Shown in pieces: positions 20,291 to 49,345 of a stretch of 64,000 nucleotides of DNA; within the stretch, counting starts at the first letter, position 1; every line of letters starts with the position of its first letter. The DNA is from Tubulanus polymorphus (lineage: Eukaryota; Animalia; Nemertea), in assembly GCF_964204645.1 (NCBI RefSeq), contig NW_027437437.1, forward strand, positions 62,001-126,000. Direction: 5' to 3'. A program made the position numbers and the translations under genes. A model generated the notes under the pieces. That model had not been told where the DNA came from, searched no databases, and saw only the letters and a program-made list of their open reading frames with translations.

Positions 20291-20310
20291 TTAGTTTTTT
20301 TGTTAAATAA

Positions 20311-21552: not shown

Positions 21553-21584
21553 AATTTTACTTTTAATCAAAAAATTTATAATAA

Positions 21585-22763: not shown

Positions 22764-22779
22764 TTTAAAATATGAATAT

Positions 22780-23378: not shown

Positions 23379-23407
23379 AATTTGAAATAGTTTAAATTAT
23401 TCTAATT

Positions 23408-24896: not shown

Positions 24897-24902
24897 CTTA
24901 TT

Positions 24903-25873: not shown

Positions 25874-26104
25874 TTATATTAGAGAAAAAAGCAAGAAAAA
25901 TATTATAAGTATTATAAAATGATACTAGATAGTTACAGTTAAAGAATTCTAGTATTAGTTATTGTTTTTTTAGTATTTTTTATTTGTGACATAAAGTATT
26001 CTCTTTTTGAAAAAAATAACAGATTTTGAAAAAAATTAAAATAGAAATAATGGCTAGTTGAAGTATGTAATTTTTATTATATTTTATTTGAATTCTATTA
26101 TTCT

Positions 26105-27794: not shown

Positions 27795-28214
27795 CTAACC
27801 ACTGATTAAAACCTCAGAATGCGGTTGATTCTGCGAGCTACTATTCCATAATTCAACAAATGTCTTTGCTTGAACCAGTTGATCTAAATATAACTGTAAA
27901 TCAAGTTTATTAGATTTGATTATATCCCTCTTTTCTAAAGGTCTTAAATTTCAATTATTCATATTTCTAATATGACTTTTAGATTTTAAATGTTCTTTAT
28001 GATATCTTTTATCACTGAATGATTGATTACATGTATCACATTTGTATGTTTCTTTTTCATTCTTTAATTCATCTAATTTAGTTTCTAATATATCATCTTT
28101 ATATTCTAATTTCAATTTATTCCCTAAATGTGTTTTAGTTTTATTGTGTCTTGCTTTTTGAGATTTATCTATATTGATTTTACATGTCGGACAGTAGTAC
28201 CTATTTGCTTCCAT
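27795..28214 (-). pseudogene. Chimera of PolB N-terminal zinc fingers and HNH C-terminal tail
   Basis: MEANRYYCPTC...KSHIRNMNN* is followed in frame by NLRPLEKRDIIKSNKLDLQLYLDQLVQAKTFVELWN. Confidence 0.8.
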
Positions 28215-28293
28215 TTTAATACTAAATTTTTTATTAAAATTGATTTTAGAAGTTATTCATTTATATGTTATTCATATATATGAATATTTTAAG

Positions 28294-28445
28294 AGTAATA
28301 GGGATAATTGGCGTTCAGGTTAAAGGTTGAAGGGGCGGGCGAGTAAAAAATGAAAAATAAATTCGAGCGTGCGAGAATTTATTTTTCATTTTTTATGAGC
28401 TCGACCCTTCGACCTTTGGCCTGAACGCTCATTATCCCTATTACT
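28294..28445. repeat. 152-bp terminal self-inverted hairpin module of copy A
   Basis: AGTAATAGGGATAAT ... ATTATCCCTATTACT with inner stem AAAAAATGAAAAATAAATTC/GAATTTATTTTTCATTTTTT. Confidence 0.9.
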
Positions 28446-30764
28446 GACGTTGAAATCCCTGTTGACTATAATTAGAAATAACATTTTCGAGTAGGTTAAA
28501 GAGTTCAGGGGAGTCATTAGAAGTGTGGAAATTAGAGTCACTCGGTGGGATATAGGTGATGCATAGAAACATATCTTTGTCAAGGTTGAAAAAAGATTTA
28601 CAAAGCTTGATCAAGAGAAGTTCGCTTGATTTAATGGGCAAGGCTTTTAATACCTTGTTTTATAGAGTTTTTTATGAGAAGGGCAATGCCACCATAGTGC
28701 TTTTTAGCGTTTTTGGATTTAGCGCGAGTATTATGAATGGTGGAAAAACCAGGTATTTCAAGGATATCGGTGTTAGAACAATGAGTCTCAGCCAGGCGAA
28801 TAATGTCATCCTTAGAGAGATCGGTATTCGAAAAACGCCTAATGAAAAACACCAAATCGGAAAACGCATAACGCCTAATTCAAGTAACATCCAAGAAATT
28901 GACCTAAATCCCTACGTGAACTATGTACGCAACGCTACATAGTTCACGTCGGAGTGCGTGGAGCGCCGCCTGTTCCATCTTCGTTTCTACGTGAAGCGTA
29001 AAACACATGTATTTTCAAACTGTTCCGTTGATGGGTTGGATTGTGAGTCTCAGTAGATGGTGCAATTACGAAATTAGGTCATTTTCTAGGAATTAGGCGT
29101 TATGCGTTTTCCGATTCGGTGTATTTCGTTTTTCGAGTACCGTAGAGAGATTGCGGTGTACATCAGGGTCTGAGAGTTTACAGTATTTTTGGCCGTTAAC
29201 TCTCCGGAAAGCACCATCGATATTCCAGAAGCAGGTTGAAATCATAGCAGGGCAGGTCATAGTATCATAAACAAAAAAAGAATAACCTATAGATGAGGGA
29301 TCGAGGGCTGTTACATACAATGAGAGTACAATATAGAATATATAGAGACCAGGCTATTGAAGTTTAGGTGCCCATTCGGATATATATGAAGGTTTGAGGG
29401 GACGCAGAAACATCAGTGCACTAGTAGGTTCACAGATATAGAATATACAAGATACATACAGATTGTAGATGCAGATGATATCTTTGATGCTCATGAAGCA
29501 GGTGTGTTTTAAGTAGGTACAAAAGTATCGATTCCTAGTGAGTTTAACAAATATAAAAAATACAAGGTACATAAGATTGTAAATACAAGGTAACTAAGGT
29601 TATAAAGTATTTTTTCCATTTTCTTTAGCAGTTTTAACATAGAGATCAATAAACTAGAGCAATAGACTCAATTATAATTAGCTGTAACATAACATTTATG
29701 AATGATTTAAGAGATAATCCCGGTTAACGGTAGAAAGCGGGTGGATTTATACACCCAGCAAGATAATCCAGGATCTGTTGTACGTGGTTGTAGTTGATCG
29801 GGCCGGTGTGGAAGTTGTTTCTCTGTCCTTTGTTATTGTACGAGCTCGAGAAACGATTGGATGGAGATGGATATCCGTGCGGAACGCGATGAGTAGGAGC
29901 TGGAGTTGCGGTTCCAGAGAGTCCTTGATAGGCTCTCACAAGAAGGCCGGTGCCTTTCTTATTGAGATGTACGCAGTCTGTTTTGAAATAGACGGACGAC
30001 ACAGATTTTAAGGCGGACGGGAGGGCGAAAATATCACAATGCAGGGTCTTCAGCCTTTCGGAGTAGCTGGAAGCTCTCGTTGAGTATCCTTCATCAGCTC
30101 GCGGTAGAGCTTCGGTGATGTAAATCGACGCATTCGTGAACTTTCGCTTGCATAATTCAATGCAAGTGTCAACGCTTTCATGAGCCAGGTCATTGTCGCT
30201 GACCTGTAGGTAGACCTTGACAATGTTGTCATTGCACTGGAGTCGTAGGCGCCCTGAATATTTTTCGCGTCCTTTTCTAATGTTTTGATCGATGTGTATT
30301 GCCCTGGAAATAGTGCGGCGGGCCGTAAAAAACGCGTATGGGAGTTCCCGACTACGATGATCTCCGCGGATTTCGCAATATTGTTACTCAAATTTGCGTT
30401 CACCGGGTTAGGAGCGGCATTGATAGAGGTTGGTGAAGGTTTCGTTTTGGCGACGGTGGTGAACGGTCTCGGATCGGAGAGTGCGTGGTTAGAAGATTTC
30501 AGGGATATTATCTCTTCGTTCAGCAAGTCATTAGTCGAATTTGCAATCAACAAGTTGTCTTCGAGGGTCATAACGGTTGACTTAAGTGACTCTAATGATC
30601 GGTTGGAGGAAGAAATATCATTTTTGCATTTCTTCAGAGCGGACGTAACATGTGATATTCTGTCCTGACTGGAGCGGAGTTTGCAGGACAGGTCATCTAT
30701 CGCTGAGCTTAGTTCGATGACTTTTCTTTTCGTTGATCGGGCAAACACCGCAGGAGGTGGTGTA
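28446..30764 (-). mobile_element. CR1/L2-like LINE, middle part: ORF1 coiled-coil plus SGNH esterase-like domain, start of ORF2 AP endonuclease
   Basis: IIVVGNSHTR and DCVHLNKKG (SGNH-like); DII.LAETH, GGIALLIK, TYIPP and a (G)DFN-like motif cut at 28446 by the copy A terminus. Confidence 0.82.
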
Positions 30765-31302
30765 AGTAATAGGGATAATAGGCTTTCAGATCAAAGGTCG
30801 AACGGTCGAGCTCATTAAAAAACAAAACATTAAAAGTAATTTAAAACTATAATATATTTTCATAACCATGTGCATTTTATATTATAACTAAATATTTATT
30901 CTAAGATATCAATAATTTAATACAATACACAAATTCATATAATCAAATATATTTTAATAATAATAATTATTCTATTATTCAACTGAAATACACACGGTTA
31001 TGAAAATATATTATAGTTTTAAATTACTTTTAATATTTGTTATTAATGAACTCGACCATTCAACCTTTAACCTGAAAGCCTATTATCCCTATTACTCTTA
31101 AAATAATCATATACATGAATAACATTTAAATTGACAGATTATTCAATATAAAAGTATATATTTACAACATTATTTCAATATTCTTATTTGTGTGAGTTAG
31201 ATTTTTAAACATTAAAAGTGTTAGTAAAGTGTGATTGAAATAATACATGATATAAATCATTGAACTTCTAAAATCAATTTTAATAAAAGATTTAGTATTA
31301 AA
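30765..31302. repeat. Left TIR (~540 bp); first 332 bp (30765-31096) are self-inverted
   Basis: Reverse complement of ~47628-48216; the terminal ~107 bp recur inverted at ~30991-31096. Confidence 0.92.
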
Positions 31303-34300
31303 ATGGAAGCAAATAAGTACTACTGCGCAACATGTAATATCAATATAGATAAATCCCAAAAAGCAAGACACAATAAAACTAAAACACATTTAGAGAATAA
31401 ATTGAAACTAGAATATAACTATGATATATTAGAAACTAAATTAGATGAATTAAAGAATGAAAAAAAACATACAAATGTGATACATGTAATCAATCATATA
31501 GTGATAAAAGATATTATAATGAACATTTAAAATCTAAAAGTCATATTAGAAATAAGAATAATGATATTTTAGGTGAAGATTATTTTGATAAAGATAATGA
31601 TAAGAAACAGAAAACAATTAAAAGCATAAAAAATAAATTAAACAATAAAAGACCATACATGGAAGATGTAAGAAATTATATTAATTCATTAGATAATAAA
31701 AAAGATATAGAGATAACGGAAGCATTTAAAAGTGATATTGGTCCAGCAGGAATCGAGTTTAAATTTCATAAAGGAAAAACATTAGAAGAAAATAAAAAAC
31801 ATTTAGAAAATATGAAAGAAATAATAAAAATAATTACTGATGTTGAATATCCTAAAATAAGTATATCTTCTAAAGTTAAATTCATAAAATCCGAAGATAA
31901 ACCAATATATAATATAAATTCTCATTCACAACATATTATTTCAAAACAACATATAGATGATAAATTAGATAAATGTTATAATGAAGTAAAAACTAAAATA
32001 GAAGAGAAATATTTTGAAGGATCTGGTTTTAATATTTGATGAAATAATATTTATGACTTTACATGTTTATAACACAAAATATAATAAGTTAACTAAATCA
32101 AAACCAATAGATGAAAATAATGTATCATATTATAAAGAACCAGATATTGAAGCATCGAGTTATATTAAACTACCATTTAAAACTAATGCTGTAATAAATG
32201 TACAAAATGAAGATGATAAATGTTTTCTATGGGCCATAATATGTTGTTTACATCCTGCAACTTATAATATTTGTAGATTAACTCATTATAAACCATTTGA
32301 AAATAATTATAAGATAGATAAGTATCCTGTTAGAATTAAAAACATCCCAAAAATAGAAAGAGATAATAATATAAAGATAAATGTATTTGATTTAATCAAA
32401 TTACCAAATACAAAAGGTAACAATATAAAACATTATACATTAGAACCTTTATATATATCAAAAGATTATGATTCAAATGATGTTATAGATATACTATATT
32501 ATGAGAATCATTATATGTGGATTAAACAAATAGATTTATTCTTTAGAACAGAAAGTGATCACCATAATAAAATATATCTTTGTAGAAAATGTTTACATAG
32601 ATTCAGTAATGAAAGTACATTATTAAATCATAAACAATTATGTGAAAATCATGATTATTGTAAATTAGTTTTACCAAATGAAAAGGATAAAATATTAGAA
32701 TTCAAAAAATATGATTACAAAAATAAAGTTCCACTTGTTATATATGGAGATTTTGAATCATTAAATAAAGAACTAACTGATCAAGATAGAAAAGAAATAT
32801 ATTATAAGAGAAAGAAATTAAATTCTAATGAAAATGATTATTCTGAAGAACCACCAAAAACAAATACTATTAAAAAGATTCATCAATCAGCTGCTGCTTT
32901 CGGGTTATATATTAAATCTGATTATCCAGAACTAATTGAAAGTGAATATTATGATTATAGAAATGAAAATGTTATCAATCATTTTTGTGACTTATTAATT
33001 GAATATGAAATAAGATTTAGTAAATTATTGAATACAAATATAGAAATTATAATGACAGAAGAAGATAAAGAAGCATTTGCGTTTGCAGGTAAATGTTATT
33101 ATTGTGAAAAGATAATTAATTATAAAGATAAAAAAGTAAGAGACCATGATCATTTGAATGGAAAGTTTAGAGGCGCTGCACATGAGAATTGTAATTTACA
33201 AGCTAAGAAAATTAATTTTGTACCAGTTATATTTCATAATCTATCAGGATATGATGCACATTTATTTATCAAACAGTTATGTCATAAAATAGAAGAAATT
33301 AATAATGAAATAGAAAGATTAAATTCAAATAGATCAAAAGATAAAATACCAACTTATAAATTTAGAATGTTAGCTAAAACATCTGAGAATTATATATCAT
33401 TCCAATTTGGATGTCTAAGATTTATAGATTCATATAATATTTTTAAGTAGTTCATTAGATAACTAATCAAAATCATTAGTTGGTGATGAATTAAAAATAT
33501 TAAAGCAACACTACCCAAATAATGATGATTTTCAATTAATGAGATATAAAGGAGCAATTCCATATTCTTTCTATAAAAATCATAATGATTTCAATATAAC
33601 TGAATTATTGAAAGAACAATTCTATGATGAATTAAAAAATGAATATGTTAAAGATGAAGTCTATAATAGAACATTGAATATTTGGAATCATTTCAAAATA
33701 GAAAATCATGGGCAATTAGTAGATATATATTTAAAATCAGATGTATTATTATTATATATTCGAAAGGTTTAGAGATGTAAACCTAAAATATTTTAATATT
33801 TAATCCTTGTCATTGTTATTCTAGCCCAGGTTTAACATGGGATTGTGGTTTAAAATTTACAGATATAAAAATGGATTTGTTAACAAATATAGATTAATTA
33901 TTATTATTTGAAAAATCTATAAGAGGAGGAGTTTCAGGTGTATTAGGCGATAGATATTTCAATGTAAATGATAACCCTGGATAAAAGTTATTATATATAG
34001 ATGCAAATAATTTGTATGGTTGGGCAATGATGGAACCACAACCTTATGGAGTATTTGAAATAAGTGAAGTTTTACAGAATGAAAATAATGATAAATTTGA
34101 TTGGAAGAAAAGAATTCTAGATATTGCAGATGATTCAGATACTGGTTACTTCTTTGTTGTAGATTTAGAATATCCTGAACATATTAAATTTAAATCTAGA
34201 AATCTAGCATACTGTCCAGAACATAAAACTGTAACTCATGAAGAATTATCAAATTACCAAAAAAGAATTAAACCCGAAAATCATATTCATACAGAAAAGT

Positions 34301-35334
34301 TAATGGTAACTCAAGAAGATAAATATAATTATGTAGTACATTATAGAATGTTGAAGTTTTATTTGAATCAAGGAATGATTCTAAAAAAAGTACATAGATA
34401 TATTTCATTTAGTCAATCTAAGTGGTTAGAAAAATATATAGATTTTAACACCAAACAGAGAACTGAAGCTAAAACTGATTTCGAAAAAGATTTCTTCAAG
34501 TTAATGAACAATGCATTCTATGGTAAGACTTATGAAAATATTAGAAATAGAAATGATATTGAGTTAGTTAGTAATGGCAAAAGGATAAGGCATTTACAAT
34601 CATATCCTAAGTTCATTGGTAACAGAATATTTGATGAAAATTTAGCTGCAGTTAAAATGAGAAGAACTTCTATGAAATTTAATAAACCAATCTATGTTGG
34701 CGCTTCAGTTTTAGAATTATCAAAATTACTAATGTATGAATTCTATTATAATGTATTACAACCACTTTTTGGAGAAAAACATATAGAAATCTTATATTTT
34801 GATACAGATTCTTACATATTAAAGATAAAAACTGATAACATAACTGATGATTTAAAAACATTAAAACATCATTTTGATTTCAGTAACTATCGTAAAGATC
34901 ATGAATTGTTTAGCAATGATAATAAAAAAGTTCCCGGTAAATTCAAAGATGAATTAGGTGGTGAAGAAATGATTGAATTCATTGGTATTAGATCCAAAAT
35001 GTATTCATATAAAACTAAAGAACATGAAGCTAAATAGTTAAAAGGAATAACCAAAAGTGTAGTAGAAAAGAATATTCATTTCAAAGATTACATCAATTGT
35101 ATATTCAATGAAGAAGTTAGAAAACATAAGATGAGATGTTTAAGATCTGAAGATCATGAAATGTTTATTGAAGAAATTGAAAAGATAAGTCTAAACCCAT
35201 TTGATGATAAAAGATATATTCTGGATGATGGAATTCATACAGTTGCTTATGGTTGTAATTTAGATGAATACTTAAAATTTAAAAGAGAAGAAACAAAAGA
35301 GAACGAGATAATGAAAAGAATTCTAACGTGTTAA
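31303..35334 (+). pseudogene. Protein-primed family B DNA polymerase polyprotein (C2H2 fingers, putative terminal protein, OTU-like domain, exonuclease with endonuclease VII insert, polymerase)
   Basis: DDKCFLWA...NHYMWI; YGDFES, FHNLSGYD, YLKSDV; CYYC...RDHDHLNGKFRGAAH..CN; YIDANNLYGWAM, KLMNNAFYGK, YFDTDS; several stops and frameshifts. Confidence 0.96.
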
Positions 35335-35363
35335 TCAAATTTTAATAAAAATATGTATTATAA

Positions 35364-35717
35364 ATGGAGAGTAAACAAGCGCACAGTGAGAAAAACAAAT
35401 CATTTCTAGATAGAATAAAAGATACTACAAATGTAAAATCTGTAGATTATAAATTCAAAAAGTTAACAGAATTAACAATTCATAAGAAATATCTAATTAC
35501 AAATATTGATACAGTTACTAATAACTATGGAGATAAATTAGTTATACACTTAGAATATGAAGGATTAAAAGGAAATACATATAAATTCAGAACATATTTA
35601 CCGGATAGATTTCATAGATTATCAAGTGAAGATTTAGAAGAATTATGTTCTGGAGATTTCTATTTCGTATACAAAGGTAAGAATGAAAAAGGGCATCATG
35701 AAATAGATTTCGAATAA
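35364..35717 (+). CDS. Small Polinton protein, possibly OB-fold ssDNA-binding
   Basis: Intact 117 aa directly after polB; FKKLTEL...Y.I...NYG..LVI.L...YLPDRF pattern; function is inference. Confidence 0.55.
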   Translation: MESKQAHSEKNKSFLDRIKDTTNVKSVDYKFKKLTELTIHKKYLITNIDTVTNNYGDKLVIHLEYEGLKGNTYKFRTYLPDRFHRLSSEDLEELCSGDFYFVYKGKNEKGHHEIDFE

Positions 35718-35734
35718 GAAAATATGTAAAATAA

Positions 35735-36493
35735 ATGGTAGAATTAAAAGAATACAGAATATTTGTTGATTCTAGAAGACTTACAAATTATAAATCTCAT
35801 AATTTACCAGTACAATTAGATAGGGAATATAAAAATTGTGTAGATTTAAAATTAGTAAATATAAGTTTATGTAATTCTTTTTATAATATAACGGATAAAA
35901 CTATTGAAGATAATGCTTTTATGATTCATATTAGAAATGTAAATAAATGGTTTCATCTAATTTTAAAACCAGGATTATATAATTGAGAAACATTAGCTCA
36001 AGAAATTAATCGAAGAGCACGGTTGAAAATTAGAAAAGATGATAAATTTTTAATTAGATTTATAAAAAGTGATAGCACAAATAAAATTAAAATAAAGGTA
36101 TATGATGAAAGTCAACATGCATTTATGGTAAAAAAACCATTAGCTAAACTGTTAGAAATTGCACCAGATACTGTTACAGGAAACGTAGATGGTAATTCAA
36201 ATATAATACCTTTTACACACTTTTATATTTATTGCAATTTAATCGAGCCTACAAAAACATTCGAAGCAACTAAAGATACAATTTGTAATTCTAGTATATT
36301 GAATATTTTACCATTAAAAAATGTTAAACAATTTGGAACGCAAATAGATTATAATTTAACAGAATGTGATTTCAAACCATGCATTTCTCAATTTAATAAT
36401 TTTAGATTAGAAATAAGAAATCACAATGGATATTTAATTGATTTGAATAATTTTCCTGTGATATATGAATTAGTTATAAGATGTAGAGAGTAA
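35735..36493 (+). pseudogene. Minor capsid (penton, single jelly-roll) protein
   Basis: IFVDSR...NSFYNI and FYIYCNLI...ILNILP...FRLEIRNHNGYLIDLNN; two same-frame ORFs separated by one TGA at 35984-35986. Confidence 0.82.
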
Positions 36494-36510
36494 TGTTTTT
36501 CACTATATAA

Positions 36511-36867
36511 ATGAATATAACTGTTGGACCGAGTATATGTTTTGGGTTTGATTTTAAACGTGAGAAAGAAATGAAATTTAACATTACTGATGTAATTACA
36601 CATATCAAAAATATAACATTTTCTAATGAAACAACATTTGAGTATGAAACAACAATAAATAAAGAAACTTTAAATGTAGAAAAGATTACTAATTTGATTA
36701 GAGAATCTTTAAGATTTTATGAATTAGATGAAGATTTTATCATCGATGATATTAAAAAAATAATAATTGAAATATATACAAATGAAACTAGTAATGAAAT
36801 AAATGTTGAATTAATCATAAATAAGATAACTAAATATTTTGATGATAGTAATTTTTTTGATAAATAA
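36511..36867 (+). CDS. Polinton hypothetical acidic protein
   Basis: Intact 118-aa ORF in a tightly packed block, TAAATG start. Confidence 0.65.
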   Translation: MNITVGPSICFGFDFKREKEMKFNITDVITHIKNITFSNETTFEYETTINKETLNVEKITNLIRESLRFYELDEDFIIDDIKKIIIEIYTNETSNEINVELIINKITKYFDDSNFFDK

Positions 36868-37089
36868 ATGAGTGATAATAAGTGGATAATAACTGGATTA
36901 TATAACAGAGCATTACTATCAGTTGGAACTGTTGGTTATTCAATGGTATTAAAAAAAGTATTTAAAATGGGAAGTGTTAATGTTGATAGATTTGATATCA
37001 ATGATATTTTAAAATTAACATTAGCAGTCACTTTATCTAATTTAACTATTGATTATTTGGAAAAACAAAAATATATTCCTCCCATATAG
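36868..37089 (+). CDS. Small hydrophobic protein (73 aa)
   Basis: Two hydrophobic stretches, TAAATG start. Confidence 0.7.
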   Translation: MSDNKWIITGLYNRALLSVGTVGYSMVLKKVFKMGSVNVDRFDINDILKLTLAVTLSNLTIDYLEKQKYIPPI

Positions 37090-37113
37090 ATACATAATTA
37101 TTTTACTAAATAA

Positions 37114-37536
37114 ATGGCTTCTGCAGTTATAACTATTATAGGATCGGCAATTGTTAACGCTTTAGCATTTACTGGTGGTGGTTATTTATTCAAGCATATT
37201 GATAAAAATGGATCATTAACAGAACAAAAAAGACATAACTTAGCATTAGAGAAATACAATAAAGCAGCAGAAGAATATAGAGAAAAACGACAAAACTATA
37301 TGGATTATATTAACAAAGAATTATATGATCAGAAGATTTCACATAGAGATTTTCAATCAGTTGATGATGCAATCAGTTTATATAACGCAGTAACCAATAA
37401 AGAAAAATTACATCTACATAAACCTACAATATCAGATTATTATACCCCAAGTAATGAACAGAAGAAATATGAAATAATATGGATTTTAGGTGGAACAGTT
37501 ATTGTTATATTTGTTGCTTATAAGTTTACTAATTAG
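37114..37536 (+). CDS. Membrane protein with hydrophobic termini and central coiled coil (140 aa)
   Basis: MASAVITIIGSAIVNALAFTGGGYLF...IIWILGGTVIVIFVAY. Confidence 0.75.
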   Translation: MASAVITIIGSAIVNALAFTGGGYLFKHIDKNGSLTEQKRHNLALEKYNKAAEEYREKRQNYMDYINKELYDQKISHRDFQSVDDAISLYNAVTNKEKLHLHKPTISDYYTPSNEQKKYEIIWILGGTVIVIFVAYKFTN

Positions 37537-37555
37537 TAATTTTTTTGCTAAATAA

Positions 37556-37990
37556 ATGGAAGATAAAGTTGATAATATTGATATTATTCCTCATGATATA
37601 AATAAAACTAAATTAAAAACATATTTAGAAAAACAAATATTAGAATTTGAAAGTGATTTAAAAGTTAAAAAGAAAAAATATTTAAAAAGTAAAATTATAT
37701 ATTATCTTATTATCAGTGGTTCGGTTACAATTTGTTCTGTAATAACATTTCTAGCAATATTCAGTCCATTAACACCTTTAGCTATATCAATTGGTGTATT
37801 AGGATTAAGTTCAAGTGTTTTAACTGGTATAAGTTCAAAATTGAATATAAAAAGTAATAAAGAAAAAATTAAAACTAATATAAAAGAAATTAATAAATTA
37901 AAGAATACACTAGATTATATGATAAGTTTAAATGGCCATATAACAGTTGAAGAACAACATAAATTATTAAAAGAATTAATAAATTATTAA
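37556..37990 (+). CDS. Two-TM, coiled-coil protein (144 aa)
   Basis: IIYYLIISGSVTICSVITFLAIF and LAISIGVLGLSSSVLTGI flanked by charged helices. Confidence 0.72.
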   Translation: MEDKVDNIDIIPHDINKTKLKTYLEKQILEFESDLKVKKKKYLKSKIIYYLIISGSVTICSVITFLAIFSPLTPLAISIGVLGLSSSVLTGISSKLNIKSNKEKIKTNIKEINKLKNTLDYMISLNGHITVEEQHKLLKELINY

Positions 37991-38006
37991 TTTTTGAGTT
38001 ATATAA

Positions 38007-39334
38007 ATGGCTAGATAGTTTTCCAAAAGCTTTCCAATATAATAAATCAATTAAATATAATATTCCAGCAATAGATTTTAATAAAGATATTACATATAGA
38101 AATGAAGTTTTAAATTCATTAATTGATTTATATATTTATGTTACTGAAAGTAATAATTTTCATGTAAAGATGGAAAATATATTTCATGTGTATACAATTA
38201 ATTTTCAAAAATTTAAATGAGGCAAAACAATGGTTATTAAAATCTAATATGAAGTATTGGCAGAACCAATTAAATTTTGCTGTTTATTGCGCAACAACAG
38301 GTTGTGGAATTAGTTGGAATGATCATTTAAACAAACCAAGTTTACCATTGATGTTATCACTTTTTAGATTTCATACATATTTTCAAATAAAATTAATATT
38401 AGATGAATTAGAATGTCCTTTACCAGGTTCAAAATTATTTAAAAATTTGAATAATAATATTAATTTTTCTAAGTTTTATAAAATATGTAATGAATTTAAT
38501 ATTAATTCAAATAAAGATTTTAGAGCAAAAATTGGAACAATGGGTGGATTAGGAATATTATATACTAAAGAATTTGGAAAAATAATGACAAATTCAGATA
38601 TAGGAACACTAAATTGGAATGAATTACCAAAATATTATAATAATATACAACAACAAAACAATAATGGTTGGGTTAATTTCATTTTAGAAAATAGTGAAGG
38701 TTTTACTAAAGCTGGTATACAAAGAATAAATCAATCAATTAGAACTTATTTGATATGTATTTTAGGTGCGCAAGTTGAAACAAGATCCCCAATAATTGGA
38801 AATGATAACACTTCATTCGATGCGCAGAAACAACTCAAAGTATTATTTGAAGATTCAATTCATTATGATAAAAATAGATCGATTCCAGAAAACATTGTAA
38901 GATATCAAAATTATTTAGATAAATCACATATTAGATTAAATTATTGTATAGGCCCTAATCTATTAATTATTTCTAATGATTTAGTATTAAAGATGGGAAA
39001 TATAATTGGTTATAATAATCTAATTAAAACTGCAACAATAAATAATTCATTTGGATTGAATGATACAACTAAAAAGATTATCACTGCTCCAAAATAAATG
39101 GAGGGTGAAAAAAATAAAAAACACATTCAATCAACAGAAACTAAAACTAATAATATTAAATTAAATAATGATTCTAAAATAAAAGATTACAATACATCAG
39201 AAAATATTAGAACTGATATTATTCAACATGATATAATTAAAACTAATGATGATAATAAATCCCATGAAAATGCTAAATTAGCTTTAACTTGTGTAGGAAT
39301 TGTAATCGGAGGAATATTATATTTTAGATTTTAA
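38007..39334 (+). pseudogene. ~440-aa Polinton protein with C-terminal TM anchor
   Basis: TAAATG start at 38007 with early disruption; 38186-39097 and 39098-39334 are in one frame separated by a single TAA; ends LALTCVGIVIGGILYF. Confidence 0.7.
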
Positions 39335-39350
39335 TTTTTTCATTATGTTA

Positions 39351-40787
39351 ATGGCAGAAGGTGGAGAAGATATTCCAATAGATACTTTTGGTGACGCTCC
39401 CGGCATAAGTGATGAACAACCACCTGATTTTAGTGAAACAAGTTTTAGTAATGATGGTAATGAGCCAGAATATAATTCTAATTTAAATACACCTGAAGTT
39501 GTTCCTGGTTCTAAACCCCAATCAACAAATGAATATATTAAAGGAGCTAGATCGAAAATACGTGCTGAAAATTTAGTGCCAGGTTTAATAAATAAAGAAT
39601 TAAATTATGATGAAATCTGGTTTCAATATAACAGATAAAGGTATGGATATATTAGCAAAAGATTTGAAATATTTAAAGGGTGTTTATTATTGGAAATTGA
39701 AAGGCGACTATCATTTTATTATTTTAAATATTAAAAGTAACGATAAAATAATAGCACAATCAACTTTTAAATTATTAGAACAATCTAGAATTAAGAAAAT
39801 CAATAATGATGTTATAACTGATGTTACAAAAAAGAAAGATCTGTTAATTTAAAAGAATTTAAACAAAGATATGCTAAATTTTTTAAGATCATTAATGAAA
39901 AATTAGAACCAGAAACAATTACTAAAGAAGTTATTAATTCCAAAACTAGTAAACCTAATTCAATAGAAGTTCAAACTGAAAAACTTTTACCGAAGGGATT
40001 ACTTGGTGCAACAGATCAAGAATTAGAAAATTTAAATATATTTTCTGATGAAGCAATTAGAGAGATTATTAGTATAAGAAATGCATCTGATAAAATTGCG
40101 CATGAAAAAAATATAAGAGATTTAAAAATTAGAACTTTAGAAAAAGAATTAACTGATAAAAATGAAGAAATAGAACAATTAGATAGAGATAATAAAGTTA
40201 TTGAAGAAATAGAATATAGGCAAAAAGAATTACGTTTAGAAAAAGAAATTGATGATTTAAAATATAATATAGAATTACAGAAAGAAGAAAGAGATATATT
40301 ATTAAAAGAATATGGTAATAATCTTAAAAGGTTAAAAGATGTTTTTAAAAGATATCTAATAAAACCAAATTCTGAAATATCATTGAAAGATAGAATAAGA
40401 TTATTATTTAAATTAGAAGGAATAACAATTCTCTCAATTCTAACAGCTGTAACTATGGTATTTACAACAATTGGTTTAGCTATATCAAATTCTTTAAAAT
40501 CTACTCCTACTCCCAATAAACCGGATAAACCCCCAGGTAATAATTCTATACAAGATAAAGTTAAAGATGGTTTCAAGAAATCAGCAAAATATTTATGGGA
40601 ACTATCTAAAAAATCTGCTGCAGCTTTACCAGGAATTATTGCATCAATTGTTGGTTTTATATTGAAATCTGCAGGAAACATTCTTAACTTTGCTGCTGAA
40701 CATATTATTTTATTTTTAATTACAGTTGTAAGTGCTATTATTTTTGGGTTAGTAAATATGATATCAAAAAATATCAAGAAAGAATAA
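39351..40787 (+). pseudogene. Long coiled-coil protein with C-terminal multi-TM region
   Basis: MAEGGEDIP... start; fragments in several frames; three hydrophobic segments at 40383-40787. Confidence 0.72.
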
Positions 40788-40836
40788 TAAAAAATAAACA
40801 TAATCAAAATAAATAATTAATTTTTTTGTTAAATAA

Positions 40837-42016
40837 ATGAGTGGGAGTTATATCAATCCTTCTAAGAATCATAGAATATCTAATGCTATTAAAGCAGAAA
40901 GATCACATCATATAATTACTCATAACCCTTCTAATATTAATCCCGATGAAACTTTATATGTTAGAATTCCTCGATTAACACAAAATACTTTTTATGTTCC
41001 AAATAGTATTTATTTATCAGCTGATATAAAAGTAATCGGTAATAATAATAATTATGTTGTTGATAATGTTGGAAGATATTTGATTAAAAAGTTAACAATA
41101 AAGATTGGTCCAGAAACAGTTTTCTCATTAGATGATTATAATTTATTTATGCATTATAAAGATTTATGGTTAACTAAAGAAAATAGAAATAATATGATAT
41201 TTCAGGGTATTCAATCGGAAAACCATAATAAATTAAGATCAGGAGCTAATGACGCAATAGTAACTCGTGCCACAGATAATTTGATTAAAAAGATTTATGG
41301 AAGCAAATATAAAATCCCATTAGACTTTGAATTGATAAACAATAATGCACCTTTATATAAATACGCAATTCAAGAAGATGTTATATTCGAAATAACATTT
41401 GCTCCTGTAAATGAAATTGTATTATCTAGCGTTGTTAAAGATATGAGTTATAAATTATCAAATATATGTTTAGAATATGATACAGTAACTGATGAAAATA
41501 TTGCTAGCACAATTCAAACTCAATACAATCAAGGATTTTCATTATTATATGATTATATTGATAAATTTAAAACCGTAACTATTAATGCAAATGATGAAAT
41601 TATTAATGAGAATATTAACTTCCCAAGAAGATCTATTAAAGGTATATTAATATTTTTTTACCATTGCAACATATTCTAATGGTGCAATACTGGTTGATAA
41701 GTATTATAATCCTGAAATAACAAAAGTAGAAATAACTATCGAAGGAATAGCAAATAAAATATTTTGTCAAGGAATGAGAATGATAGATCAATGGCCAGAA
41801 ATTAGAAAACATTTTATGAATGAAAAAGTGAAATCATCTGAAAATTGTAATATTAATCAAATTGATTATTATACCGGTATTAAATATGCATTATGGTTAG
41901 ATTTTAGAACAACAGAGGATAATTCATTACATGGTTCTGGAAAAAAACTACAGAACACTTAAGATGGAATACAATTATTCATGACAAAGAAAAAAGGAAG
42001 CCTAAATTTCAAAATG
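40837..42016 (+). pseudogene. Major capsid protein, copy B (frameshift ~41660; last ~25 codons deleted)
   Basis: Highly similar to 20311-21552; homology stops abruptly after AAATTTCAAAATG. Confidence 0.87.
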
Positions 42017-42573
42017 TAACAAAGGCTAATTGGGCAAAACATTATAAATTAATAACAAAAGGTGGAAATGATTCAGCCCATGCAATATAGGTATTTAAAT
42101 CTTGGTGTGAAAAATGTAAAGAATATGTAATATATGATAAACAATTGAATCATAAATACTCAATTAAACATATTGGTACAGATAATGTAATAGAAAATCC
42201 AACAGTTATAAATCCAAAATTTAATAAAATGAATATATTAGATTATCGGTGGTATAGAAAAACATTTATAGATTATTTCTCGAGTAATGATATAGTTACC
42301 ATATTGAAAAAGTTAGATAACTTTAAACCAAATGTTACTGATGCAATGAACTTATTTGAACTTAAATATGATGATTTTAGAGAATTTTTAAATAAACATC
42401 CATCTAAAACTGAAATCGAAAATTATATTCCAAAAATATTTTCAAGAGAAACATTCAATAAATATAAACTCGGGAATCGTTTAGGAATTATACCAATGAA
42501 AATGCAAAGGAATATACGGTTAGAATATGATAAGCTTAAAGAAAAATATGAAAATGAAAATGAAAAAGATTAA
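42017..42573 (+). pseudogene. 3' remnant of the variable zinc-finger gene, copy B
   Basis: WCEKCKEYV......H.YSI.H and YRKTFIDY align only weakly with copy A CEKC...H.ISI.H and YRSIFIDY. Confidence 0.6.
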
Positions 42574-42588
42574 TTTCCATTTATATAT

Positions 42589-42908
42589 TGATGGATGAAT
42601 GGATGAGTTGGATGAGTTGGATGAGTGGAAGAGTGGATGAGTGTAATAATATATATATTTTACTTTTTAACACATGAATTGGAAGAATAGTATGAGTATA
42701 AATATAATATTTGTATTCTTTTTTAAATTTAACACAATATATATATATTATTAAAATAATATTTAAATGTAGTATAAAATTGATAAAATAACTTCAAATC
42801 AAACTCTTACTGTTTTAAAAATAAAAAACATATGTAAATTATATATTATTACACTCATCCATTCATCCAATTCATCCAATTCATCCAATTCATCCACTCA
42901 TCCACTCA
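42589..42908. repeat. Inverted arrays of 8-9-bp GGATGA(G/A)T repeats around an AT-rich core (copy B)
   Basis: ~6 units plus GTGTAATAATATAT on the left, mirrored by ATATTATTACAC plus ~6 TCATCC units on the right. Confidence 0.9.
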
Positions 42909-43159
42909 AACACATTCAAAATTCTATAATATTTTAAATTAGGATTTTATTTTGTAAATTTATATTCATACGGAAATTAAAGCCTCAGTAATAATAAATA
43001 ACCTTTATTATTTTCAAACTAATTCATATATTAGTTGAAAAAAATAAAAATAAATTGGTTGAAATTATATGAATAATATTTATTTTAAAAATGGGGTTTC
43101 AAGCATTAATGTATTTAATACGTATCTAATACGTATTAGATAGATAGATATATAAATAG

Positions 43160-43775
43160 TTATTTTATAAATTTATATTCATATGGAAATTGTAGTCTCA
43201 GTAATAATTTTGAACCTTTATTATTCTTTAATTTATTCATATATTCATCATGTAATTCAGTAGGTATAATTTGATTTTCTTCCAATGATTGTTGCATAGA
43301 TTTTCTATCTTTGTTATAAAATAAAACTAGAAATCTTATATTCTCCCTAAAGTCTTTAACAATTGAATTATATTTTTGATTTAAAACCCATGTTGTTATC
43401 CCAAAATGTCTTCCAGAGAAAGCTAGATAACATAACTCACTTTCTCTCACTTTTGAATCATGTAAATTAGCGCAATCATCTACAATGAATAATGTATTTG
43501 ATCCTTTATAATCAATTATCAATTGCTATTTTTATACAATTATCTAAATTGTCTTTTACTGTTTTAGGATCTAATATAATAAACTTTTTCATCTTAACTA
43601 TATCTCTATTATATGTTTTATTCATTTCATAAGTAGGACAAAATAATATTATATTATCAAAATGATTCTCATAAATAGTTTCTAACAAGTCTAATATGAA
43701 ATGTGTTTTACCACAGTTTGTTACTCCAGTAACTAACATATTATGAGGTTCAAATATAAATAAATCTTTATTCAT
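43160..43775 (-). pseudogene. A32-like packaging ATPase, copy B (single frameshift ~43515)
   Basis: GVTNCGKT, FIVDD, SGRH. Confidence 0.92.
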
Positions 43776-44859
43776 TTATTCTTTTAATTTTACTAGATAA
43801 AATCCATTCATTAAATTTATCATCGTATCCTTTATATTTCACCAAAGAATACTTTTTTCCTTTAAGAGTTTTTGTTTTCAATACTTTTTCTATTTTGTAT
43901 TCTATTTCATCTGGATTTGGTACAAGTGATAATTCTTGTTCATAGAAATAACCTAATATTTCTTCATCTTTTAGATCTTCTAGTTTATAAACAAAAGGTT
44001 TAGTTAATATTATCTTTTTAATCTTAAATATTTCTTCAGTAAAATTAGGAGTATAACCTTTATAAAATGTTTTTCGATATTTAGATATTCTAACATGTTG
44101 TCTAATTTTAAATTTAGGTTCACCGAAATCATGTGTAACAAATGCTCCATATAAATTATTCCAAACTATTTCCGAATTATCTTCTTTTCTAGCTTGTATA
44201 GGTTTCATATTTATAGAACTATGTTTAGAATTATTATAACCTTTCACCAAATCATCTAACACACCGATATATTTATATGTTTCATTAGCAGTAAAGTATT
44301 TCCACATTCTAGTTTTCAATGTTTTATTAAATCTTTCTATAATAGATGCTTTTTTATCTGAGTGTGTTGAAAAATATTCTACATCGTTATCAGATAATAG
44401 TTTTTTTAAATGTTTGTTATAAAATTCCTTACCTTCATCAAATTGTATCTTATCTGGAATAGCTTCTTTAAATATTGATTTAAAAGCATTTGTTACTTCT
44501 ATTCCAGTTTTATTTTTGATTGGAATTGACCATGCGTATCTACTGAATATATCTATAACATTCAGTATCCAGAAATATCCGTTGTTGTATTCCTCTAAGT
44601 TCTTCATGTCAATTAAATCTGCTTGCCATTGTTGATCGATATATGAAACCATAACTTTTCTTGTTAAATAAGTTTTATCCATTTTCTTGTGTATTTGATA
44701 TGTTGGTTGATTTTGTAACCATAATCTTAGTTCACTATATTTTATATTACCATTTTCTTTATCAGATTTAATTTTATTCCATAATTCTAAAACGTTAGAA
44801 TATGATACTTCACTCTCTGGGTTATAATATAACTCTCTTAAATATTGTTCTTTTTTCAT
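43768..44859 (-). CDS. Retroviral-like (rve) integrase with C-terminal chromodomain, intact 363 aa
   Basis: DDE motifs WQADL, IQFDEGKEF, IERFNKTLK; chromodomain YKIEKVL...LVKYKGYDDKFNEW. Confidence 0.95.
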   Translation of the reverse strand: MKKEQYLRELYYNPESEVSYSNVLELWNKIKSDKENGNIKYSELRLWLQNQPTYQIHKKMDKTYLTRKVMVSYIDQQWQADLIDMKNLEEYNNGYFWILNVIDIFSRYAWSIPIKNKTGIEVTNAFKSIFKEAIPDKIQFDEGKEFYNKHLKKLLSDNDVEYFSTHSDKKASIIERFNKTLKTRMWKYFTANETYKYIGVLDDLVKGYNNSKHSSINMKPIQARKEDNSEIVWNNLYGAFVTHDFGEPKFKIRQHVRISKYRKTFYKGYTPNFTEEIFKIKKIILTKPFVYKLEDLKDEEILGYFYEQELSLVPNPDEIEYKIEKVLKTKTLKGKKYSLVKYKGYDDKFNEWILSSKIKRINE

Positions 44860-44865
44860 CTTCTT

Positions 44866-45264
44866 TTAATCCATTAATAATAATCTTGGTTTATTTTCAA
44901 CGATTTTAACATTTGACTTATTTTCTGGTATAATAGGTTTACTGTCTGTACACGGATAACTAAGTTTCCGATTGTCATTGGAATCATCTTTATCATCAGA
45001 TTTGAATTTTGATGTATATATTACACCGCATAATATAATAACTGTTACTAATCCAATTGTAATATATAATTTATAATTGCTTCCAGCATTAGAAGAATCA
45101 GATGGATTATTATTTGAATGAATATCAGATAAAGTCTGTGATTCATTTATATCAGTTAATTTCTTTTTCTTAGCTTTTTTTAATTCTGAAGATCTTTTAC
45201 CTAATTCTCTTGCCCATATAATTTGTTTCTCGGATCTAGCCTTTTTCTTAACTCCATCACTCAT
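44866..45264 (-). CDS. Small basic plus TM protein (132 aa)
   Basis: Intact in copies A and B; YITIGLVTVIILCGVIY hydrophobic segment. Confidence 0.75.
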   Translation of the reverse strand: MSDGVKKKARSEKQIIWARELGKRSSELKKAKKKKLTDINESQTLSDIHSNNNPSDSSNAGSNYKLYITIGLVTVIILCGVIYTSKFKSDDKDDSNDNRKLSYPCTDSKPIIPENKSNVKIVENKPRLLLMD

Positions 45265-45269
45265 TTATT

Positions 45270-45861
45270 TTAGTTAATTTTTGTTCTGATATCATTTTCT
45301 GTTTCGACGTTTGGTTGTAGTACATCTGTTTCGTTCTTACCTGATTTATATTCCATAGGCTTGATGTTCGAAAATGTTATGACGCCAGTAGAAATTAATG
45401 TCATAACCGATCCTAATTGAAATGAAGCATATCCGACCCATTTTTGTAATTCAGTCATAACTAAATAGTCATTTTTCAAATCACTATATAATTTATTTTC
45501 ATCATCAATTGGTATTAACTGGTTACATAACTTAGAATAACATTTGACAATACCATCTGAAATAGAATCATTTATTCTAGCTAATCTAGCTTCTTCATAA
45601 ATCTTAAAATATTTCATTACTTTATCGGGTTTCATAGCATCTAATTCTTGAAAAGTAATTATTTTCCCGATAAACTGATTATATTTCCCGCCAGCAATTA
45701 ATAATTCTAGATGGTGTTTACAATATAAATAGTATTCATAATCAATATTACAATTAATATTATTTTCAATTTTGATTGGAATATCCTTATTATCACTAAT
45801 GCCTAAATCATCTAATGTTTTTTCATATGTTGGTATTATTCTTATTTGATTTCTTTGACAT
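45270..45861 (-). pseudogene. Polinton hypothetical protein
   Basis: Orthologue of 25264-25873; TAAATG start at 45861; disrupted. Confidence 0.7.
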
Positions 45862-46973
45862 TTATATTAGAGAAAAAAGCAAGAAAAATATTATAAGTAT
45901 TCTTCAAAAGATACTAGCTAGTTAAAGCTAAAGAATTTCTATTCGGATCTATTCAAAATATAAAGTATTCTCTTTTGAAAAGAAAGTATTAAAAATATAA
46001 TAGAATTCACTAGCTAGTTGAAGTTTTTGTTTTTTAAATACTTTTTATTTAGATTAGGATTTAGATTATCTCACTAATATTGTTTATCTATAGGAGCAGT
46101 AACTATAACTGTCCAGATAAGTCATTTCGGATTCTCGATAATAAATCCTAAAACTGAAAATAAATTCAAAGAAACGACTGGTGGAAATACTATTTCATAA
46201 ACACATATATTTTGTTATACAATCATTATCGATTTCTACATTCCTCACCGGGCGTCTGAGGCCCGGCAAGTTATGCGTGGAATGCAGGAATCAATAAAAT
46301 ACAATACAACATCTGTCACTGTGTGTCATTAACAACAGCTTAATGACGCAATTGACATTCCGACAAACGTAATGCATTGGAAGCCTATACAGTATGGCTA
46401 AACTGCTACATGTCTCATGAGTTGAAATATCCATTATTTCTGATTCCACATCCATCTATCTTCACTTTCTTGATTCAATGGCCTTCATTTTGTTATCTAA
46501 AAGATAAATATCTAGCGTAGAATAAAACTAACTTGAAGTTGTAGTTGTAAAATATTAATTACAACACTTAAACATGACCATTTTGTGGCGCATCTTACCA
46601 GGATAAGTTTTACATGTTTAGCGTTTTCCAACGCCTTAATAACAACAAAAACCGTACTTACATTTATAACTGTAAACTCCTAAAATTGTGTTTATAGAGA
46701 GAATATCCTATACGTTCCTATGCTTATGTGCTGCGCGTTTATAACTGGCAGTTATTCACTAGCTAAACACTGTCTGTGCAACAGATGTTCCTTCTTTTGT
46801 AATATAATTGATTAATCCTTTTCAACTAAAATAACACACCCGATCAATATTCAAATGAGATACACCCTATTCAACTGAATATGAAATACGGCACAGATGT
46901 TTTTGTAAACAACCTAATACAATTACATACAGGCGGTTTGACATAGATCGAGAGTAACCGGTTTTCTAAGCGT

Positions 46974-47627
46974 TTAACATTCAACGTATTTTTCATTATG
47001 TGTTGAGTTCCATAATTCAACAAATGTCTTTGCTTCATCCAGTTGATCTAAATATAACTGTATATCTAGTTTATTAGATTTAATTATATTTTCTTTCTTT
47101 TCAAGAGGTCTTAAATTTCTCCAGTTCTATATTAGCTTCTTATTATAATCATCACTCATGTCAAATTTAGATATTGGTAACAGGTGATCAATATGGTAAT
47201 AATCCCCATAATTATCTATATTCATTTTATCATCGAATTGAAATATAATCCATGATTTGAGAAATTCATCTGAACAACCCAATAAATTAGATAGTGTTTC
47301 TGAATGTGTTTCTTTGTTGAATAATTGTGTTAATCTAGATCTTAAACATTGTTTCAATCTAAAATTAAGATCTGTTTGATATCTTTCTCTCATATATTCT
47401 GCCATATAATAATTATAATGTTCTATATTATCTTCTCGGTATTGTTTGGTATATAGTTTAAAACAAGTTTTAAAGCAATATTGAAAACCATCTTTGCTAA
47501 TCTTACGCTTACTAAATTCTGTTAAAGCTAATTTATCTAATTCACATTTAGAACACTTCTTGTAGTATATATTTATAACACCAGCGTTATTTGTTATATC
47601 GATAGTTTGTGGTTGTTCTGGTTCCAT
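46974..47627 (-). pseudogene. HNH endonuclease (large-DNA-virus/phage type), one premature stop
   Basis: KKCSKC...KDG...C, LLGCS, NYGDYYHIDHLLPISKFD, then *NWRNLRPLEKKENIIKSNK. Confidence 0.85.
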
Positions 47628-48216
47628 TTATTATACATATTTTTTTACTAAATTGATTTTAGAAGTTCAATGATTTATATTATGTATTATCTCAATCACA
47701 CTTAACTAACACTTTTAATGTTTAAAAATCTAACTCACACAAATATAAATATTGAAATAATGTTGTAAATATATACTTTTATATCTATTCTATAAGAGCT
47801 CACACTTTACTCACACTTTTATATTGAATAATCTATCAATTTATATGTTATTCATATATATTTTATTCATGTATATGATTATTTTAAGAGTAATAGGGAT
47901 AATAGGCTTTCAAGCGGTCGAGCGGTCGAGTTCATTAATAACAAATATTAAAAGTAATTTAAAACTATAATATATTTTCATAACCGTGTGTATTTCAGTT
48001 GAATAATAGAATAATTATTATTATTAAAATATATTTGATTATATGAATTTGTGTATTGTATTAAATTATTGATATCTTAGAATGAATATTTAGTTATAAT
48101 ATAAAATGCACACGGTTATGAAAATATATTATAGTTTTAAATTACTTTTAATGTTTTGTTTTTTAATGAGCTCGACCGTTCGACCTTTGATCTGAAAGCC
48201 TATTATCCCTATTACT
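47628..48216. repeat. Right TIR; last 328 bp (47889-48216) are self-inverted
   Basis: Reverse complement of the left TIR; inner AGTAATAGGGATAAT at 47889. Confidence 0.92.
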
Positions 48217-49345
48217 GGTGTATTTTTTTCATGTCGCGTATTAACTTAAAGACTTTTTCGGAGAGTGAGAGAACTTGTAGGTCTAGACATACAATTTTTT
48301 TTCGGATTGAGACTTACTAAGTGTTTGTAGTTCTTTATTAAGCTTCTTTTCCACTAGGAGTTCTCTTTCGATAGCTTTGTGCCGTAGTTCATCGTTTTCG
48401 GAGGACGCAGACAGGAGTTTGTCAACAAATTTTGATTGAAGTTCTCTAAACATAGCCATACAGGGAGTATGCGAAATGGATGTATCTTGATACGTGTTGG
48501 TGGAGGCGTCACTCAGAGCAGATGATTTTGGCTCGGTTTCAGTGTTCGTTGATGCGCATGCCATGGAGGGCGTATCGAATGGTGAGAAGAAGTCCGACGG
48601 AATAGCGCATATACAATACTCACATTGAAATGTACGCTTCGTTTTATGCAGAACATAAAGTTGGTAGCGGGGCAACTTAGTGCATTTATAATGCAGCCAG
48701 CTTGCGCAGCTTTTGCATTCGATCATGCGTTCATCATCTGGCAACGCGCAGAGAGTGCAGCTATAGTTCATCGACGGTTCAGAAACGGTTCTGTCGTTAG
48801 TAGCACAGTGAGATGGCGGTTCTTCAGTACATACAGGTTCGCTTAGAGTTGCTCGGCACGTTGTCGGAAACTCGATCCTCTGGGTTTTACAGAATAGGCT
48901 GAGAGGTGTGGATTTCATAGTCCCTAGCAAATCTATGGAATGTACTATAACATCCTCTAGCGGGTGTTTCAGAGGTCACGGGCATCGCGAAGACTCGAGA
49001 ATTTCTTAAAAGAGGGATTTGATACTCCCTTTACCGAGGCCTCACACGTGTCCCGAGATGTGTGTATGCCGCGATCACGGCCGACCGCGACGGCGTAGTA
49101 CCAGTTCTTTTGTTTGCTCGGCGCCATGTTTGTTGTTGTTGACGTTGTTTTAGGCAGTTTCAGAACGCGACGCAAATCGATGAATTTAAGATAGACGATA
49201 GATGATTTAGTTCAAATGAGGAGCACAGATAGTTAATCAGCACTTACGATTGATAGATGTAAATGACAGACGAACTCGATCGGTCAAAATAGTGAAGAAA
49301 TCTCAGATTTAAAGGGAGCGCTGCAAAAACATGTTAGCGTTCAGA
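48217..49345 (-). mobile_element. 5' part of the CR1/L2-like LINE: 5' UTR and ORF1 with RNase H1-N/viroplasmin-like domain and PHD finger
   Basis: WYYAVAVGRDRGI......C...VKG.....FKKFSS...A; CTLC...MIECKSCASWLHYKC...FQCEYC; joins 30764 across the GGTGTA TSD. Confidence 0.82.

Follow-up and report, generated by a model that had tools for sequence, protein, structure and literature searches.

The closest described relatives of the element studied here are the Polintons (Mavericks) and 'adintoviruses' (Starrett et al. 2021, PMC8502044), which it resembles in its terminal inverted repeats (TIRs), 6-bp target-site duplication, polB, rve integrase, A32-like ATPase, capsid and penton genes. How animal Polintons are transcribed, and whether they live as autonomous viruses or as parasites of larger ones, has yet to be settled, and hardly any experimental systems exist for such work. 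Virophages carry the late promoter of their helper virus (PMC8547959, PMC6510173 and PMC6401483). Polinton-like viruses (PLVs) occur in entomopoxvirus occlusion bodies, the capsids of two entomopoxvirus-associated PLVs adjoin the maverick-polinton 2 clade, and mobilisation of two polintons has been noted in cell lines that produced baculovirus-made particles (PMC11296320). The window analyzed here, a whole stretch of 64,000 nt (Tubulanus polymorphus contig NW_027437437.1, positions 62,001 to 126,000), contains an integrated, decayed Polinton (Polintoviricetes) at positions 30765–48216, hereafter copy B, and parts of two related copies, A and C. Most genes of copy B carry a promoter-like signal, fused to the start codon, that resembles poxvirus late promoters.

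An earlier note on this sequence had listed 12 TAAATG gene starts and a TAAAATG start at polB (31303), with the integrase (44859) and the gene at 39351 as exceptions, and all of these were recovered. TAAATG is found at 12 of the 15 gene starts, versus 16 of the 352 other sense-strand ATGs in the gene blocks (Fisher test, p=1.2e-12), the ATG at 39098 being counted with this background, as it is internal to the gene starting at 38007. The longer form [AT]ATAAATG also occurs at 12/15 starts, and at only 6/352 of the other sense ATGs. A single TAAATG start of the 12 (36868) abuts the stop codon of the preceding gene. The T-run motif TTTTT-N2-4-TA[AT]ATAAATG gave 14 overlapping matches at six sites (20311, 36511, 36868, 37556, 38007 and 40837), whereas 100 dinucleotide shuffles gave a mean of 0.06 and none reached 14; the starts at 37114 and 45861 fit this motif more loosely. 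The AATCAATTT-type core reported ahead of other genes was present at 31303, 35364, 47627, 26797, 28214 and 60475, but these sites are not independent: 31303 and 47627 sit in the two arms of one terminal repeat (86% identical over 603 nt), 28214 and 60475 repeat the 31303 start, and 66 nt of the promoter at 35364 match that at 26797 with 88% identity. The usual eukaryotic translation context has a purine at −3, and the window starts show the reverse (2/15, versus 190/352 background ATGs). The early-type words AAAANTGAAA and AAAATTGA occur seven times in the element, not located ahead of annotated starts.

A capsid profile retrieved 36 metagenome loci, 35 of which were grouped by capsid identity and motif, prior to tree building; L036, a 27-residue match, was left ungrouped. 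Across the 16 near loci (20–44% GC), TAA precedes the ATG at 60 of the 72 called starts, TAG at none and TGA at one, and only one of the 60 TAA-ATG starts abuts a called stop. In the same loci, TAA precedes 35/1248 internal ATGs and 54/948 first ATGs of small open reading frames (ORFs). One near locus, L014, was a miss (0/2 starts). The distant loci encode homologues of the same genes despite the absence of the motif, which was found at 1/20 starts in seven AT-rich loci (26–39% GC) and at 0/91 in 12 GC-richer loci (42–59% GC). Near-duplicate, short or broken sequences (L002, L012, L023, L025, L027 and L031–L036) were omitted from the capsid tree of 26 rows, in which a branch supported at 100/98 separated the 14 near-group rows from the others; the motif-free L015 adjoins the near group. 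TAAATG starts are a trait of one capsid clade. With the near-duplicates L002 and L012 dropped, which leaves a set of 54 TAAATG starts, the motif is present at 35/43 tandem, 14/16 head-to-head and 5/7 contig-edge starts. There is no upstream stop or poly(A) site at head-to-head starts, so overlap with such sites cannot account for the motif there. The motif described in the earlier note is borne out by the window counts, the clade counts and the shuffles, and the signal is unexplained by stop-start overlap, AT bias, Kozak context or poly(A)-signal overlap. Relatives sought by capsid, polB or the 442-aa protein were found neither in IMG/VR nor in the phage set.

The signal has a second, upstream part. 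A T at −12 is found in 48/54 TAAATG starts of the clade loci, in 12/12 of the window and in 11/35 internal TAAATG, and a T at −13 in 41/54 starts versus 10/35 internal TAAATG; since this control is coding DNA, the T excess is partly one of intergenic composition, which counts against a promoter reading, but the sharp T peak at a single position is not compositional. A purine at +4 follows in 52/54 starts (24/35 internal TAAATG), and an A lies at −18 in 43/54 starts. In vaccinia late promoters, the start codon is overlapped by TAAAT, mostly with a G after it, and ten bases further upstream a conserved T stands amid other T's (PMC11980589; also PMC5294985). We compared the clade with the published vaccinia strings (Table 1 of PMC11423596). 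The late string T-N9-TAAATG matched 41/54 starts and 10/35 internal TAAATG, and the 'Group I' string 16/54 and 0/35, respectively, with the best fit at the published spacing among three tried. The intermediate string of the same article, TAAAAA-N14-TAAA, matched 0/54 clade starts and 0/12 window starts. The late-like character proposed in the earlier note was supported, in that TAAAT(G) over the start codon, then a purine, comes near the published vaccinia late pattern; by these string matches, the starts are built like poxvirus late promoters, although with a spacing shorter by one base.

The four bases before the T at −12 are all T in 16/54 starts and all A in 7/54, and these 23 runs compare with 7.8 expected by column shuffle (0/5000), an excess that runs in AT-rich DNA inflate. 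T-runs predominate in the major capsid gene, the small membrane-type genes and the 38007 and 45861 families, and A-runs in polB, the zinc-finger accessory genes, the ATPase and the penton gene; the HNH, 35364, 36511, 39351, 45264 and integrase families are mixed. Within the window, much of the A-run class is a copied terminal-repeat promoter. However, a TT[TA]AATAAA block starting exactly at −24 is present at 4/54 clade starts, on three gene kinds, so the A-run class is more than such a copy. Two promoter classes had been claimed: an A-run variant does exist, but both classes keep the T at −12, the A-run starts having A at −13 and yet T at −12. The further suggestion that replication genes are intermediate-like and structural genes late-like failed, since A-runs also head the ATPase and the penton gene (window 35735, L005 and L011), the L007 capsid gene has an A-run, and the intermediate string was found at none of the 54 starts; the L005 homologue of 35364 has a T-run. 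Shared head-to-head promoters blur the classes, because the complement of an A-run counts as a T-run for the gene on the opposite strand. A looser published wording of the intermediate promoter (TAAA lacking a T ten bases ahead of it, an AT-rich block 15–19 bases upstream; PMC11980589) may fit the A-run class, though the T at −12 is kept, and vaccinia intermediate genes include DNA-binding and packaging proteins (PMC11980589). Probably, the T-run and A-run forms represent a single post-replicative promoter that differs in strength or timing, rather than a code that sets replication genes apart from structural ones.

We suggest, with a probability of about 0.65, that these elements form a provirophage-like clade whose genes are read by the late-type RNA polymerase of a cytoplasmic large DNA virus infecting the same cell. 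The claim that the element has no RNA polymerase of its own agrees with our searches, as the proteins of copy B gave no match to an RNA polymerase family (longest open frame 482 codons; the related loci are fragments). The hyperparasite interpretation put forward in the earlier note thus stands in part: dependence on a helper virus is the best reading of a bipartite, clade-wide motif and of an element without an RNA polymerase, but the functional split into two promoter classes does not. The two-part signal, a T at −12 and then TAAATG over the start codon, would likely serve the helper's late-stage RNA polymerase as a promoter. Transcription would initiate within the AAA of TAAATG, slippage, as in vaccinia, would add a 5' poly(A) leader, and the mRNA would thereby lack the T at −3, which is unfavourable for translation. 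The integrated element would be silent until the cell is infected by the helper; its own polB would then replicate it and its own capsid would enclose it, much as for mavirus with CroV. In poxviruses, early transcription takes place while the genome is still encapsidated, and that of the intermediate and late genes follows replication (PMC11423596). Foreign DNA in the infected cell would for this reason be limited to the post-replicative machinery, which would fit late-type starts on its genes, polB included. The integrase start has TAAATG in L001 and L005. Copy B itself is decayed and could act as a passenger only.

The helper is likely a nucleocytovirus with start-fused initiators. Such TAAAT initiators, with poly(A) leaders made by slippage, have been demonstrated for vaccinia and the yeast pGKL elements (PMC6211774), whereas asfar-like viruses have TATATA (PMC11788076). 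A poxvirus-like virus is the best single candidate and takes up somewhat more than half of the probability given above, the remainder going to some other nucleocytovirus with TAAATG starts. The helper need not be a poxvirus, because TAAATG starts occur in giant-virus-like contigs. A motif scan of IMG/VR returned at least 120 loci, and the proteins of seven of them were scanned. No poxvirus was recognised among these seven protein-scanned loci of the IMG/VR matches listed. Among the matches listed, TAA preceded the ATG at 52/481 other starts, and among those listed with at least five further starts none exceeded 3/5, under the 83% of the clade. Many starts in the giant-virus-like contigs L057, L098, L099 and L105 read TAAATG, TAAAATG or AAAATG; an ATG8-like protein is encoded by L099, and a Ras-family GTPase, an HMG box and a TspO protein by L057. 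Contig L068 (G001, 19 kb, 44% GC) carries ten [AT]ATAAATG, all on one strand, versus three in the reversed control, and the three of its proteins that were scanned gave no Pfam matches. The clade member L005 has a deoxynucleoside kinase gene (10340–10981, − strand) that starts with TAAATG behind a T-run, and L007 contains a weak homologue of it. We rejected this kinase as a lead to the helper, since its only viral match was a contig (37% identity) in which 1/18 ORF starts have TAAATG.

Several observations weigh against a pox-like helper, or against helper use altogether. TAA before the ATG is also frequent among the further starts of giant-virus-like contigs (4/7 in L099, 4/10 in L057 and 2/3 in L098), the bin G002 has 166 motif matches versus 82 in the reversed control, and none of the accessory genes of the clade links it to a poxvirus. 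The fit to the vaccinia late string is better with N8 than with N9 spacing (48/54 versus 41/54 starts), the T being one base nearer to TAAATG than in vaccinia, and the 'Group I' string fits only 1/12 window starts. The integrase, which needs to act in the nucleus, is without the motif in the window and in L004. The poxvirus early terminator TTTTTNT (as TTTTT[ACG]T) is found 10 times in coding strands versus 32 expected, but two neighbouring words are equally low, so this shortage is not specific; codon shuffles of AATAAA, splice-donor words and TTTTTNT yielded no clear additional signal. Head-to-head gaps are shorter still in the sister clades than in this one, at 4–11 nt, and we abandoned the argument that short head-to-head gaps rule out the host polymerase.

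The alternative that deserves most attention, although we consider it unlikely, is that host RNA polymerase II, with or without an element-encoded factor, reads TAAATG as part of a core promoter peculiar to this clade and starts at or near the ATG, in an autonomous nuclear element. Integration takes place in the nucleus, host DNA contains the element in abundance (668 reads leave its right end), TATAAATG, which contains a TATA-like word, is present at 21/54 starts, the elements have zinc-finger genes, and the sister clades do without the motif. However, a host TATA box usually lies 25–30 nt from the start site, and a TATA word placed on the start codon leaves no space for this distance; AATAAA is not depleted in the coding strands (150 versus 156 expected by codon shuffle, a test that has no good positive control); and the likeness to a known cytoplasmic-virus architecture covers two separate elements. 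If TAAATG were a translation signal only, either an in-frame insulating stop or a site of re-initiation on polycistronic transcripts, TAA would be in frame with the ATG by construction, as it is, and the tight packing of the tandem genes, many of them 9–32 nt apart, would suit such a role. Equally serviceable TAG and TGA codons are nevertheless used at 0 and 1 starts against 60 for TAA, real stops are abutted at 1/60, and neither the TAAATG of 14/16 head-to-head starts nor the fixed T at −12 would be accounted for; we regard this possibility as improbable.

Marginally less probable still is that the motif is a relic from an ancestor with a pox-type helper, with present members spreading only within genomes. 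The decay of copies A, B and C in the window would agree with this, whereas selection on the motif was recent, the motif being kept across capsids about 50% identical, a GC range of 20–44% and gene rearrangement, and many metagenome loci having open capsid frames of 408–419 codons. We give hardly any weight to an artefact of AT richness, of stop-start overlap, of an AATAAA overlap with the preceding gene or of a trans-splice acceptor. The element is about 24% GC, and AATAAATG, containing AATAAA, is found at 22/54 starts, but it is no commoner in tandem (14/35) than in head-to-head (5/14) starts; AT-rich sister loci have the motif at 1/20 starts, and the shuffle mean of the T-run motif is 0.06. 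A trans-splice acceptor requires AG, which is present within 12 nt in 1/8 T-run starts. Dependence of the clade on the late-type polymerase of a helper remains the reading that we prefer.

Copy B is 17,452 nt long, with several fragmented genes and 21–25% GC in most 1-kb bins. It is bounded by a 6-bp target-site duplication, GGTGTA, on the + strand at 30759–30764 (left) and 48217–48222 (right), a length that is a Polinton hallmark. The left TIR (30765–31311, + strand) includes the polB start with its A-run promoter and the right TIR (47619–48216, − strand) the start of an HNH gene with its A-run promoter; the repeats are 98% identical over 301 nt, the 86% over 603 nt including gaps. The outer ~330 nt of each repeat (30765–31096 and 47889–48216) form an imperfect palindrome (77–79%), at the centres of which (30920 and 48060) variant loop sequences and strand-switch joints were observed among raw DNA reads. 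This suggests that the terminal repeats of the family have hairpin-like ends differing from copy to copy.

The genes in the left part of copy B lie on the + strand and begin with a protein-primed polB (31303–35334), in several pieces, with an N-terminal zinc finger, an endonuclease VII-type insertion and a TAAAATG start of the A-run class; its pieces are 28–41% identical to the L018 polB, which matches PF03175. A 117-aa gene to which we assign no function (35364–35717; TAAATG, A-run class) has a promoter homologous to that of the copy A HNH gene. It is followed by a penton (minor capsid) gene of the single-jelly-roll type in two ORF pieces (35735–36493; TAAATG, A-run class), the fold of which is taken from the L005 homologue; the predicted structure of the latter (pLDDT 63) has the mavirus penton as its best match (E 5e-8, TM 0.43). 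Four small genes, some with hydrophobic segments (36511–37990; starts 36511, 36868, 37114 and 37556), all have TAAATG and a T-run. A conserved 442-aa-type gene, left without an assigned function (38007–39334), is in pieces and has TAAATG with a T-run, the ATG at 39098 lying within it. The conserved 485-aa-type gene that comes next (39351–40787), also in pieces and with a hydrophobic C-terminus, is without TAAATG but keeps the T-run. The major capsid gene (40837–41962; TAAATG and T-run), of the double-jelly-roll type, is broken after 280 codons; its relative P0001 (81% identical) is predicted to fold as a double jelly roll (pLDDT 85), with an iridovirus capsid as best match (E 5e-17).

On the − strand, an A32-like packaging ATPase (PF04665) in pieces (43160–43775; TAAATG, A-run class) has its promoter within the 3' end of the integrase gene. 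The rve integrase with chromo domain (43768–44859) is an open frame of 363 aa with a start lacking TAAATG, and matches PF00665 at 35.8 bits, above the cut-off. Two conserved genes without an assigned function (44866–45861; starts 45264 and 45861) both have TAAATG, with a T-run at 45861, and the HNH-type gene (46980–47627; TAAATG, A-run class) has a truncated frame. The capsid and ATPase blocks converge on repetitive, palindromic non-coding inserts that differ between copies B (42588–43032) and A (22785–23371). A Ulp1-family cysteine protease or adenain gave no Pfam, NCBIfam or PDB-sequence match among the proteins scanned.

Copy A (19507–28445), the right half of a related element, retains TAAATG at 20311, 21585, 24021, 25873 and 26797, and copy C (60339–62977, + strand) is a left-end fragment with its polB start at 60475. 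The right end of copy A (27844–28266) has the 5' end of polB (28214, with zinc fingers) followed by the tail of the HNH gene, and is a recombinant formed inside the terminal repeat. A search pattern specific to the polB-type start recovered its three copies. In one run, 668 raw DNA reads cross the right end into dissimilar flanks (agreement 0.35), which indicates many insertion sites for this Polinton family, because the reads leave the right end into unlike sequences. The three Polinton pieces lie within one repeat-rich 64-kb stretch, in which flanking regions (945–3525, 15383–18080, 48283–48918 and 54516–57997) contain remains of a Gypsy-type gag and RNase H, a Helitron (Rep, PIF1), a PHD-finger ORF, a weak RAG1-like ORF and a chromo-domain ORF. 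The Gypsy-type, Helitron and PHD-finger remains are consistent with an animal host, which is likely. Among the relatives outside the motif-bearing clade, the AT-rich distant loci (L015, L017, L019, L027–L029 and L032) have AAA before the ATG at 10/20 starts versus 29/302 internal ATGs, which may be either an ordinary translation context or a second start-fused signal. In GC-rich sister loci, a GTTCAATAC-like word lies shortly 5' of the capsid start (L018:5419, L021:4794, L022:30 and L024:983; clear in three of the four) and is a candidate promoter of a different type.

The clade-restricted signal of poxvirus late type makes the question of a helper directly testable, and offers a route to helper assignment from sequence. 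A wider proposal, which we put forward tentatively and hold to be rather doubtful, is that this invertebrate, integrase-bearing Polinton clade consists of provirophages of an undiscovered poxvirus-like lineage, with a switch from host to helper transcription on one branch. If a provirophage clade is indeed involved, promoters would be a fingerprint of the helper, start-codon motifs would group animal Polintons according to the virus on which they are parasitic, and poxviruses could be predicted in hosts where none are known. No description of Polintons with TAAATG starts was found in the literature within reach, which did not extend to preprint supplements, Repbase reports or subscription journals. 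Of three papers that mention polintons and contain TAAATG, two have it in primers, the third being PMC3500242. The word 'promoter' is absent from the accessible main texts of PMC8502044, PMC11071308, 10.64898/2026.10.13.758929 and 10.1101/2024.03.23.586382, and 'promoter', 'motif' and 'transcription' from that of PMC11296320. We therefore describe what is apparently an unreported, clade-wide promoter-like signal in a known kind of element.

Compared with described Polintons/Mavericks, the window clade differs in the start-fused TAAATG on most of its genes, absent in the sister loci, and in that a protease was not identified. Entomopoxvirus-associated PLVs of the Polinton type (AHEV_PLV1/2, CBEV_PLV1 and Ca_PLV1; Barth et al. 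2024, PMC11296320), which we compared by description only, have been proposed as poxvirus hyperparasites, but they are tied to poxviruses by co-isolation and not by promoters; all four have a protease and no reported rve integrase (PMC11296320), whereas the window element has an rve integrase. Vaccinia late and intermediate promoters and the yeast pGKL initiator TAAAN share with the clade TAAAT over the start, a purine at +4 and, less exactly, a T about ten bases upstream, although the strongest T is one base closer in the clade than in vaccinia, the A-run class misses the published intermediate string, and the pGKL elements encode their own polymerase, unlike copy B. The mavirus/EMALE provirophages and Sputnik-type virophages are likewise capsid-coding, integrating and without an RNA polymerase, and the mavirus penton is the best fold match of the predicted penton structure of the clade; however, they have protist hosts, Mimiviridae helpers and other motifs (TCTA for mavirus), and use of a helper is experimental for mavirus and the Sputnik-type virophages, whereas we infer it for the window clade. 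The mavirus model of a genome-resident, virus-triggered element would extend from protists to a probable animal host.

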